A stretch of 64,000 nt of DNA from a phage. This document shows, one piece after another, positions 50,541 through 54,032 of this stretch. The translations under genes and the position numbers were made by a program. The notes below the pieces were generated by a model. It saw only the letters and a list, made by a program, of their open reading frames with translations, did no database searches and was not told the DNA's origin. The stretch lies in NCBI GenBank assembly GCA_026110335.1, contig GCA_026110335.1_3055.1; one strand, given 5' to 3'. Every line of letters begins with the position of its first letter. Position 1 is the stretch's first letter.

Positions 50541-51059
50541 TCAATAACCTCGGTCTTGACGAGCGAAGTTTTCAGCATTTTTCAGATAATAAAGTTTAAA
50601 GATTTCTTCAGCTGACATTCCAAGAGCAATGAATTTATTCATGAAAAAGTGAAATTGGTCAATTAGTTCAAATTTAATTTCAAGCTGATCTTCAGGAGAT
50701 AAATCTTGAATTTTCTTGGATTGCATTTCAGAATAACGTTTCTTCCAAGGTTTCCATACAGCAGAAGCTTCTTTTTCGCCATTACTCATACCGCCAAGAG
50801 AAGTATATAACTCGCGAGTTTCGTCTGCGATATAATCGTCTTGGTTTCGCAACCAAGCAAGAACTTCTCCTGCAGTTTCAAGTGAATCGGGATGACGATT
50901 TGTTTCTGGTTTATCATTAGCCAAACGAATCTGTAAATGCCGCTGCATATCAAGCATAACCTGCAGTGGGTCAATATTGTGCATAATATTCTCAGCATAT
51001 GCACGATTTGCTTTATCAACACCTTCGATCAAATGAGCACATTCATTAAAGTGAGCCAT
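50541..51059 (-). CDS. 56: dCTP pyrophosphatase (dCTPase/dUTPase) gp56
   Basis: 172 aa from MAHFNECAH; MazG-like; position between soc and dam. Confidence 0.8.
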   Translation of the reverse strand: MAHFNECAHLIEGVDKANRAYAENIMHNIDPLQVMLDMQRHLQIRLANDKPETNRHPDSLETAGEVLAWLRNQDDYIADETRELYTSLGGMSNGEKEASAVWKPWKKRYSEMQSKKIQDLSPEDQLEIKFELIDQFHFFMNKFIALGMSAEEIFKLYYLKNAENFARQDRGY

Positions 51060-51119
51060 TATTTTTCCTTTCAATTCATCAATAAGTTAAATAATTATAT
51101 CATTTGAATATGTAAGCAA

Positions 51120-51908
<789 letters not shown>

Positions 51909-52010
51909 TCATTTATTGCAGCAAAAAACGAATTATACAATTCTTCATCATATGTATTTGATAGTAATACTAACACGTTTTGCGATAAATATTAATTTAA
52001 AGGAGGACAT

Positions 52011-52211
52011 ATGGTACAAAAATTAATGGCACTTGTTAATGCCATAAAAGGTAATAAGAAACGTATAGCTTTTACTATTTCTGCTATGATAGGAATTTTA
52101 CTTTGGAATTTTGTTTTATCGCCAGTTGCTATTGCTCATGGCGTTAGTATTCCAGTAGTTACTCTTGATACATTCGTAGATTTAGCATTTGCTTTAGTTG
52201 GGTTAATTTAA
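52011..52211 (+). CDS. small membrane protein (66 aa), plus strand, convergent with gene 61
   Basis: Strong RBS AGGAGG 5 nt before ATG; two hydrophobic segments; stop overlaps gene 61 stop. Confidence 0.5.
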   Translation: MVQKLMALVNAIKGNKKRIAFTISAMIGILLWNFVLSPVAIAHGVSIPVVTLDTFVDLAFALVGLI

Positions 52212-53236
52212 ATCTTAGCATATTTAGATAGCCGCATTTTAGCCATCAACCCCTGGGCAATATTATTTTTCATATATTCCATAATTTGTTCAGGGGTTGC
52301 ACCTTCCTTTCTAATCATATCATTAACATCTTTTGATTTCCAGGGAGATTTATCCCAAAACATAACCCTTTCTCCTGCATCAACTAATTTAGTCATTCGC
52401 TTAATAGTGTCAGGGTGACGAGGTTCATTATCTAAAACCCACACTCGTTTATCTTTAAATGGAACAACTTCTAGGTCTAATTGACCACCCGTAATAGCTA
52501 TACCATTTTCAATAAAAAGTGAATCTATAGGTCCTTCTAGAACATATACATCACCATCTTTAACTCGTTCAACCCCGTAAATTTTTGTTGCCTCAGGATA
52601 AGCTTTGATGGTGATATATTTTTGGGGAGCATCTTTCTTTAATGCACGCCCTTGAAACGACTCGGCTTTTCCATTAGCATTATAAATTGGAATAACAAGA
52701 CGAGGCTCAGGTATTTCCTTTTTATATGTTCCCGGTGCTATGCTATTAACTAATTTAGGCCATTCAGTTGTAAACCAAAGATATTTCCATTTATCCTTTG
52801 GAATACAACGAGCTTTTATATATTTTATAATTGCATGGTCTTCCGCCAGTTTATCTAATCTAACACATGACGGAAGAGATTTAATTATTTTCTTCTCAGG
52901 TTGTTTAGGAAGTTCTTTAGGTTTTTCTACTGGACGACTTTTACATTTTTCTTTTCTTATTTCAAAGATATACTCACGATATAAATCAGGTTCAAACTCC
53001 TTTAAATATATTCCGATTGGTGCATGATAGTTACAGTTATAACAATGAATATTTCCTTCATTATTATCGCCGTAATACCATCCACGGGCTTTATTTTGGT
53101 CGGTTTTTGAATCTCCACAGACAGGGCATCTAAACCGTAATTTAAAAGTTGAACTATTATTTACTTGTGTGAATTTAGGTAAATGAGCTAATGCACGATA
53201 CGCAAACTCATTATCAATCCAAGGTATTGATGACAT
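52208..53236 (-). CDS. 61: DNA primase gp61
   Basis: 342 aa; N-terminal zinc ribbon CPVCGDS...CYNCNYH and TOPRIM region; matches recalled T4 gp61. Confidence 0.93.
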   Translation of the reverse strand: MSSIPWIDNEFAYRALAHLPKFTQVNNSSTFKLRFRCPVCGDSKTDQNKARGWYYGDNNEGNIHCYNCNYHAPIGIYLKEFEPDLYREYIFEIRKEKCKSRPVEKPKELPKQPEKKIIKSLPSCVRLDKLAEDHAIIKYIKARCIPKDKWKYLWFTTEWPKLVNSIAPGTYKKEIPEPRLVIPIYNANGKAESFQGRALKKDAPQKYITIKAYPEATKIYGVERVKDGDVYVLEGPIDSLFIENGIAITGGQLDLEVVPFKDKRVWVLDNEPRHPDTIKRMTKLVDAGERVMFWDKSPWKSKDVNDMIRKEGATPEQIMEYMKNNIAQGLMAKMRLSKYAKI

Positions 53237-53239
53237 TCT

Positions 53240-53404
53240 TTACTCTTCTTTTTCTTTAGATTCCTCTTTTTTCTTTTTAGGAATCTGTTCAGGACCTTTA
53301 TTTACTACAGCGCCTGACGTTGTTCCAGTAGAGATATTTTCAGGATTACAACCTGAATCTCCAGCTACCATATCTTCTTTGATAAATTCTTTATATGTTT
53401 TCAT
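53240..53404 (-). CDS. hypothetical small protein (about 54 aa), 61.1-like
   Basis: Hand-translated MKTYKEFIKEDMVAGDSGCNPENISTGTTSGAVVNKGPEQIPKKKKEESKEKEE. Confidence 0.35.
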   Translation of the reverse strand: MKTYKEFIKEDMVAGDSGCNPENISTGTTSGAVVNKGPEQIPKKKKEESKEKEE

Positions 53405-53405
53405 A

Positions 53406-54032
53406 TTAACCTCTATTCATAAAAGCATTAAAAATTTGGTCATCAATAGAAACATTTACTTTAGACTGTTTTTCAGATGGCAATTCATATCCACATATTA
53501 CAATTTTATGATCAATATCAAAATACACAGAAGCAATATGATTAATGATATTTTCAGTGAAGTCTAAATCAACATCAATGTCTTTTTGACCAAAACCCAA
53601 AGGATAAATAATGCGAGTAATTCGATTATCTTTAACAAAGATTCCACCGACATACTCTGTGCTGCGTTTAAAGTCTACACGCCGACGAAATGAAAAATAT
53701 TCAGGCTCTTTATGAGCTCGGCTCATAGGGCACAACGAATAACTAGAATAAGAGATGTCAAATCCTACGCCTTCAATATGAACTAAATTGTCATGATTAA
53801 ACCAATTATAATCATATGCCAAGTCCATTAGATTGTCATATGTGAAAGGCACCGGATTAACATCATTGGTCACAAGCATATAATTAGCAACTGCTATAAT
53901 TTCATTATTTTTAACGAAAACAAACCGTGATTGATGCGAATGACCTGGACCTGTGTTTTCACGATTAATGATATAACACTGGGCACCTTTATATTTGTAC
54001 GTGTCTTTACACTTGTGCATTTGATAAAGCAT
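53406..54032 (-). CDS. hypothetical protein (208 aa), 61.2-like
   Basis: ORF track; coupled to sp. Confidence 0.5.
   Translation of the reverse strand: MLYQMHKCKDTYKYKGAQCYIINRENTGPGHSHQSRFVFVKNNEIIAVANYMLVTNDVNPVPFTYDNLMDLAYDYNWFNHDNLVHIEGVGFDISYSSYSLCPMSRAHKEPEYFSFRRRVDFKRSTEYVGGIFVKDNRITRIIYPLGFGQKDIDVDLDFTENIINHIASVYFDIDHKIVICGYELPSEKQSKVNVSIDDQIFNAFMNRG

Follow-up and report, generated by a model that had tools for sequence, protein, structure and literature searches.

The closest described relatives of the gene analyzed here are conserved hypothetical genes of T4-like phages. They are annotated in most relatives, mostly under the name "hypothetical protein", and are held as a protein family in PHROG (phrog_2024). 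RB69ORF029w (NP_861719) and VR7ORF033w (YP_004063714) are the named orthologues. Nolan et al. (2006; PMC1524935) counted RB69ORF029w among the ORFs without a match in T4, and a transmembrane (TM) helix at residues 21–41 was already predicted for its product in supplementary file 2 of that paper. Beyond its own family, the product can be compared with the T4 holin T, with the class II holins and pinholins (S21), and with the T4 proteins Imm and Sp.

The window, which is the whole stretch of 64,000 nucleotides analyzed, is a T4-type (Tequatrovirus) genome. Its minus strand carries gene 56 (50541–51074), dam encoding adenine methyltransferase (51120–51899), and gene 61 encoding DNA primase (52208–53236), and beyond gene 61 it carries 61.1, 61.2, sp, and 61.4. 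A preliminary description had placed a 66-aa plus-strand ORF between dam and gene 61, convergent with the latter and with overlapping stop codons. The coordinates (52011–52211, plus strand, ATG to TAA) and the translation (MVQKLMALVNAIKGNKKRIAFTISAMIGILLWNFVLSPVAIAHGVSIPVVTLDTFVDLAFALVGLI) agreed with that description, and the TAA of the ORF and the TAA of gene 61 share four bases (52208–52211, ATTTAAAT). The AGGAGG ribosome-binding site was likewise located, at 52001–52006, with a spacing of 4 bases (ACAT), or 5 when the A of ATG is included. The description had named no T4 gene in this orientation at this position; in agreement with it, nothing is annotated between dam and gene 61 in NC_000866 and AF158101.

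The window protein matched the phrog_2024 profile with an E-value of 8.1e-31 (106.6 bits), residues 2–66 aligning with profile positions 1–65 of 65. The gene is thus a member of this family, with the same length, orientation, and position between gene 56 or dam and gene 61 (T6, RB69, and others have no dam at the locus, and gene 56 is the neighbor there). What sets it apart is solely that both T4 reference records lack the T4 orthologue, and for this reason RB69ORF029w was counted as having no T4 match. The T4 orthologue is intact at NC_000866 17,738–17,938 (L003 3739–3939) and differs from the window gene by 4 amino acids and 12 nucleotides. The exact T4 protein had no NCBI accession in the protein collection searched and was found only in Logan assemblies. 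The ORF is also unannotated in JS98 (NC_010105 15343–15537) and IME523 (L029 1501–1698).

The modest new point is that the ORF is intact in T4 yet absent from both reference records; beyond this annotation gap, the biology is the ordinary one of a conserved hypothetical gene. T4 is a reference organism, and many data sets built on NC_000866, among them proteomics, RNA-seq counts, and screens by CRISPRi or knockout, are without this ORF. Its product, a small membrane protein on which purifying selection acts strongly in the closest relatives of T4 and in at least eight further T4-like genera, has therefore probably never been assayed in T4. Annotating the ORF is cheap and would allow tests of whether it acts in the control of lysis, in the function of the envelope, or by antisense effects on primase.

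Conservation and coding constraint

A tblastn search with the protein retrieved 693 phage records, of which 686 covered at least 80% of it with the frame intact. Approximately 503 Tequatrovirus records matched at an identity of at least 80%, compared with 502 records containing a T4-type primase (at least 95% identical); as the two counts agree, essentially every Tequatrovirus carries the ORF. A further 190 records (Mosigvirus and Gaprivervirus) matched at 47–57% identity.

Wider homologues were found by walking along primase loci for a small late-strand ORF lying tail-to-tail with the primase gene. This position and orientation are shared by at least nine T4-like genera in all: Tequatrovirus, Mosigvirus, Gaprivervirus, Dhakavirus (seen in PSD9; JS98 is the case without annotation), Moonvirus, Gelderlandvirus, Jiaodavirus, Marfavirus, and Kanagawavirus (the unannotated ORF of IME523), together with two metagenomic lineages. 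Winklervirus, Kagamiyamavirus, Slopekvirus, RB43, and Serratia phage 92A1 lack the ORF beside their primase gene. A Dhakavirus/Marfavirus type and a Moonvirus/Gelderlandvirus/Jiaodavirus type share phrog_2024 with the T4 type, and the subtype representatives matched this profile with E-values of 5e-28 to 8e-26. Profile comparison by hhalign related the T4 type to the Dhakavirus type (probability 97.1%, E-value 4.8e-11) and to the Moonvirus type (probability 97.5%, E-value 6e-12). An exhaustive profile (HMM) search of 1.84 billion representative proteins gave six matches, all from the same family, and the family is therefore restricted to T4-like phages. Across the 64-kb window, the family profile found no paralogue or other relative, and t and sp were unmatched.

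Gaprivervirus UPEC01 has two tandem paralogues, one of the T4 type and one of the Dhakavirus type (L015 2495–2692 and 2701–2901). VR7 has tandem copies at L014 2495–2692 and about 2584–2970; the second copy, which is unannotated (NC_014792 16598–16792), has a C-terminal frameshift when compared with UPEC01 and continues into the antisense strand of the primase gene. The arrangement of the stop codons relative to gene 61 differs among relatives, with a 9-nt gap in metagenomic lineage L017, a 14-nt overlap in L019, and an 18-nt gap in KPV15.

Pairwise Nei–Gojobori estimates of dN/dS were 0.08–0.30 within Tequatrovirus and 0.10–0.13 within Mosigvirus; one higher value, 0.61, was based on three substitutions only. 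Between genera, dS was saturated and dN was 0.27–0.55, while the protein motif survived; motifs were kept at 20–55% protein identity where the DNA was saturated. As the minus-strand gene overlaps only the last 4 nt of the ORF, this purifying constraint belongs to the plus-strand frame. The near-universal presence in Tequatrovirus, the low dN/dS, the homologues at 47–57% identity, and the more distant ones at the same site bore out the earlier proposal of a real gene: the ORF is a genuine, strongly conserved protein-coding gene of T-even-type phages.

Frame disruption in close relatives had been named in the preliminary description as evidence against a gene. In ECCR664 (OL631257; L016 about 2495–2500), the only truncated copy examined, a 1-nt deletion in an A-run changes AATAAAAAG to AATAAAAG. 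The record has 134 kb and only 100 annotated features, and the truncation was set aside as a counter-example, since faulty assembly is a more probable cause than decay to a pseudogene. The T6 record (NC_054907 16228–16230; L005 1501–1503) has ATT where the other Tequatrovirus examined have the ATG start codon. This ATT lies 4 nt after the same AAGGAGG, and the CDS in the record begins at Met6 instead; the ATT could be a non-canonical start codon, a mutation, or a sequencing error.

Predicted late expression

The ATAAATA motif that had been noticed upstream of the ORF is present at 51985–51991 and is preceded by a G. Together they form the late-promoter-like −10 element GATAAATA (51984–51991, plus strand), which agrees with the T4 late consensus TATAAATA (positions −13 to −6) at seven of eight positions, the mismatch being at −13 (G here, not T). 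Nolan et al. (PMC1524935) placed the late consensus at −13 to −6 and reported that the T at −13 is poorly conserved in T4-like phages; they identified no late promoter for RB69ORF029w. From the published placing, the predicted transcription start would lie approximately 6 nt after the motif, at 51996–51998 on the plus strand. A start near 51997 would give a leader of approximately 14 nt, and the equivalent position in T4 would be about 17,722 (plus strand). The Shine–Dalgarno sequence, AAGGAGG in full (52000–52006, plus strand), lies 4 nt before the ATG.

The upstream regions of 16 sequences were aligned by eye. Despite flanks diverged beyond recognition, NATAAATA or ATTAAATA was found upstream in 14 of the 16 (ATAAATA in 12 and ATTAAATA in two), 4–14 nt before the Shine–Dalgarno sequence, and the base at −13 was G, A, C, or T. 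The two exceptions without the motif at the usual place were L017 and the second gene of a tandem pair. A strong Shine–Dalgarno sequence (AAGGAGG, AGGAGG, or GGAGG; AAGGAG in RB69) was present in 15 of the 16 sequences, including the first gene at every locus compared, and only a weak purine run takes its place in the second tandem copy of UPEC01.

The window is poor in ATAAATA: both strands together have 14 sites, compared with 37 ± 6.8 in dinucleotide-preserving shuffles, every one of which gave a higher number. This depletion would fit with stray late promoters being selected against. Several of these few sites stand in front of late genes in the same layout, namely three ORFs of the tail-fibre region (two with the full TATAAATA), holin gene t, and soc. 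The layout in front of t (window approximately 26.7 kb) resembles that of the ORF in detail: both have NATAAATA, 8–9 nt, AAAGGAGG, 4–5 nt, and ATG, with t reading AATAAATA-tccttaaAAGGAGGgtct-ATG and the ORF reading GATAAATA-ttaatttaAAGGAGGacat-ATG. As the ORF, the Shine–Dalgarno sequence, and the promoter-like motif are all kept across genera and ATAAATA is under-represented in the window, their combination is more than chance.

On the plus strand, 10 sigma-70-like sites were found compared with 12.8 expected, and none of them stands in front of the ORF. Given the conserved late-type motif and no sigma-70-like site above chance before the ORF, we infer that a gp55-type late promoter drives it. 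The late expression proposed in the preliminary description is thus favored by the comparison of upstream regions and by the likeness to t.

An 8-bp perfect inverted repeat (ATTAATTT at 51991–51998 and AAATTAAT at 52020–52027) brackets the Shine–Dalgarno sequence and the start codon. Its stem consists of A and T only and is weak. Because its left arm extends over part of the predicted promoter and start site, a late-promoter transcript would lack this arm. The layout recalls an arrangement described for T4 gene e.

Predicted topology and function of the product

The window protein has a hydrophobic stretch at residues 19–42 (Kyte–Doolittle 19-mer up to 2.0) and a second one at residues 45–66 (1.86), which contains D53 and D57. 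The two hydrophobic segments that had been described from the sequence are therefore present in this protein. AlphaFold2, run with a shallow alignment of eight sequences (mean pLDDT 75), predicted helices at residues 2–13, 16–42, and 52–62 and a loop at 43–51. Residues 1–18 (52011–52064, plus strand) form a predicted amphipathic helix (2–13) followed by the basic patch KGNKKR and are predicted to be cytoplasmic. Residues 19–42 (52065–52136, plus strand) form the TM helix according to both hydropathy and AlphaFold2, with the invariant W32-N33 and P38, and residues 43–66 (52137–52208, plus strand) form a conserved loop and tail with G44, P48, the acidic residue 53, and the helix 52–62.

In an alignment of 15 family sequences, the invariant columns were W32, N33, P38, G44, and P48; A40 and G64 were nearly invariant, and position 53 was Asp or Glu in all 15. 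The conserved signature can be written as W-N-x4-P-x5-G-x3-P followed by D/E. The N-terminus is rich in Lys and Arg, with a net charge of +1 to +7 in all 15 members, and the hydrophobic 19-mer around the W-N motif has a Kyte–Doolittle value of 1.5–2.6 in all of them. The tail beyond the TM helix has 20–25 residues in every member, and the C-terminus is hydrophobic with a net charge of −2 to 0. The hydropathy of the tail is 1.5–2.2 in the T4 type and 0.4–1.5 in the other two subtypes.

The claim of a small membrane protein held for every member, each of which has a strong TM helix; the two hydrophobic segments did not extend to the family, as the second segment is not hydrophobic family-wide. 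For the same reason, a single pass is more likely than two TM helices. The family-wide features and the structure prediction point to an N-in, single-pass inner-membrane protein, with its conserved surface predicted at the outer-leaflet and periplasmic side. In the T4 type, the C-terminal segment allows more than one topology, being hydrophobic enough for a second TM helix, and the tail could dip into or cross the membrane.

Similarity searches were uninformative as to function. Pfam, NCBIfam, and PADLOC gave nothing relevant for the window protein, nor did NCBIfam and PADLOC for three relatives. A profile search of PDB sequences gave chance matches to YejA only (E-value 0.13), and Foldseek against BFVD returned the family itself and one 63-aa Enterobacter phage protein (E-value 0.09), with no informative fold. 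A literature search on the ORF names, on T4 ribosome profiling, and on unannotated T4 ORFs found nothing on this gene. Three functional labels in relatives were considered and rejected. The label "putative head morphogenesis protein" in T6 belongs to notes transferred from unrelated matches (the dCTPase there is noted as "ferredoxin"), and "DNA packaging ATPase" for the second copy of UPEC01 and "Holin" in one UniProt entry are unsupported automatic names.

The best explanation of the locus, in which we have good confidence, is a genuine T-even gene that most likely has its own gp55-type late promoter, a single-pass inner-membrane product, and a late envelope-side function. Transcription would start from GATAAATA, and the short leader would carry the strong Shine–Dalgarno sequence in the layout seen at t. 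A single TM helix (about residues 19–42) would anchor the 66-aa product in the inner membrane, leaving the basic N-terminus on the cytoplasmic side and a short C-terminal tail at the periplasmic face, where W32, N33, P38, G44, P48, and the acidic residue 53 would cluster. A late role on the envelope side, in which the protein would contact another component of the membrane or periplasm, is the most likely one, and candidate roles are lysis timing, lysis inhibition, and envelope integrity or maintenance. The role of a late envelope-side accessory protein is a guess, placed above others only by timing and topology. As a side effect, transcription of the ORF would yield RNA antisense to primase.

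A bolder version, in which the protein is a missing late-acting envelope factor at the periplasmic face that modulates, for example, the timing or inhibition of lysis or the protection against superinfection late in infection, is tentative and on balance unlikely. According to this version, the gene, although present in essentially all T-even-type genomes, would have been overlooked by T4 genetics and screens because the reference annotation omits it, and its antisense transcript may also damp primase.

Alternative explanations and neighboring elements

The unit may instead mainly drive late antisense transcription across gene 61 and thereby shut off or interfere with an early/middle replication gene, with the peptide secondary, a possibility that we regard as improbable. 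As the ORF converges on gene 61 with overlapping stop codons and no plus-strand terminator-like site was found in 51000–53500, the late transcript should run antisense into the primase gene. The tail-to-tail position beside gene 61 is kept in at least nine genera, and antisense transcription of the early gene 32 of T4 offers a precedent in the literature cited in PMC3014915. The overlap with gene 61 is, however, not conserved, as gaps of 9 and 18 nt occur and a second paralogue lies between the two genes in Gaprivervirus. A strong Shine–Dalgarno sequence precedes the gene at every locus compared, and selection on the amino acids is strongly purifying, with invariant protein motifs surviving saturated dS. 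Because of this amino-acid constraint, the antisense effect cannot be what selection sees in the ORF, although it could be a real by-product.

An assignment as a small holin or pinholin-like lysis protein, as the UniProt/BFVD entry of the OE5505 orthologue is labeled, is very improbable. The protein does resemble the class II holins and pinholins (S21) in that it has 60–70 residues, is hydrophobic, and is probably late, and T4-type members have two hydrophobic stretches. The layout of promoter and Shine–Dalgarno sequence is also that of t. Unlike these holins, the protein has no family match, no charged C-terminal cytoplasmic tail, and no conservation of the second hydrophobic segment as such. 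No Pfam or NCBIfam match was obtained at E-values up to 1, and the sole PHROG match was phrog_2024, to which no function is assigned. Two conserved TM domains with a charged cytoplasmic C-terminus, as used to recognize holins, were not found, the C-terminal end being hydrophobic without a charged domain and the charge being N-terminal. The label itself is an unreviewed automatic name, and T4 has a well-characterized holin, T, which is encoded in the window. Both T and the ORF product are N-in inner-membrane proteins, the latter by prediction. The T holin has a large periplasmic domain. It has 218 residues in the window and is unmatched by the family profile, whereas the tail of the ORF product extends only approximately 23 residues beyond the TM helix.

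An early or middle membrane protein, for example one acting in superinfection exclusion like Imm and expressed from a sigma-70 or MotA promoter, is highly improbable. The ORF does lie in an early-gene block approximately 2 kb from sp, small T4 membrane proteins with exclusion roles exist, and Imm and Sp resemble its product in being small T-even envelope proteins. Imm and Sp are, however, early genes on the other strand, and the ORF runs opposite to all neighboring early genes. Upstream, it is a late-type element that is conserved, sigma-70-like sites upstream are not above chance, and the family profile detected no second copy or relative in the window.

The weakest alternative, a spurious ORF in a region conserved merely as non-coding control DNA or RNA (a gene 61 terminator or the dam promoter), is effectively refuted already by the substitution pattern and has next to no probability: although the curated T4 records leave the ORF unannotated and a terminator-like hairpin of the minus strand lies inside it, dN/dS values are well under 1, nearly all records keep an intact frame, the protein motifs outlast saturation of the DNA, the hairpin is not kept outside Tequatrovirus, an Rfam search of the region gave no family match (sub-threshold chance matches only), and the sole frameshift examined is a single-base deletion in a poorly annotated record.

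This hairpin with its T-run (ATGGCATTAACAAGTGCCAT followed by TAATTTTTGT; 52026–52045, minus strand) follows gene 61 on its own strand and falls within the 5′ part of the ORF's coding sequence. A scan for terminator-like sites found one site compared with 1.3 expected by chance. The hairpin was rejected as the reason for conservation, being kept within Tequatrovirus only and being no more than chance gives. It is an uncertain candidate for an attenuator of gene 61 transcripts.

On the dam side, TGTATAAT (51932–51939, minus strand), read from the sequence and without a −35 match, lies 33–40 nt upstream of the dam start codon and is a possible −10 element of a dam promoter. Many relatives have an insertion of approximately 540 bp between dam and the small ORF, which is not present in the window. 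In IME537 (NC_054921 93541–94101; L002 1550–2110), the insertion contains a 186-aa minus-strand CDS that abuts dam and belongs to phrog_8706. Its similarity to the GATC-specific restriction endonuclease DpnII is weak and sub-threshold (Pfam E-value 0.0045, 16.8 bits with a cutoff of 23); a GATC nuclease beside a GATC methylase would be notable if true.
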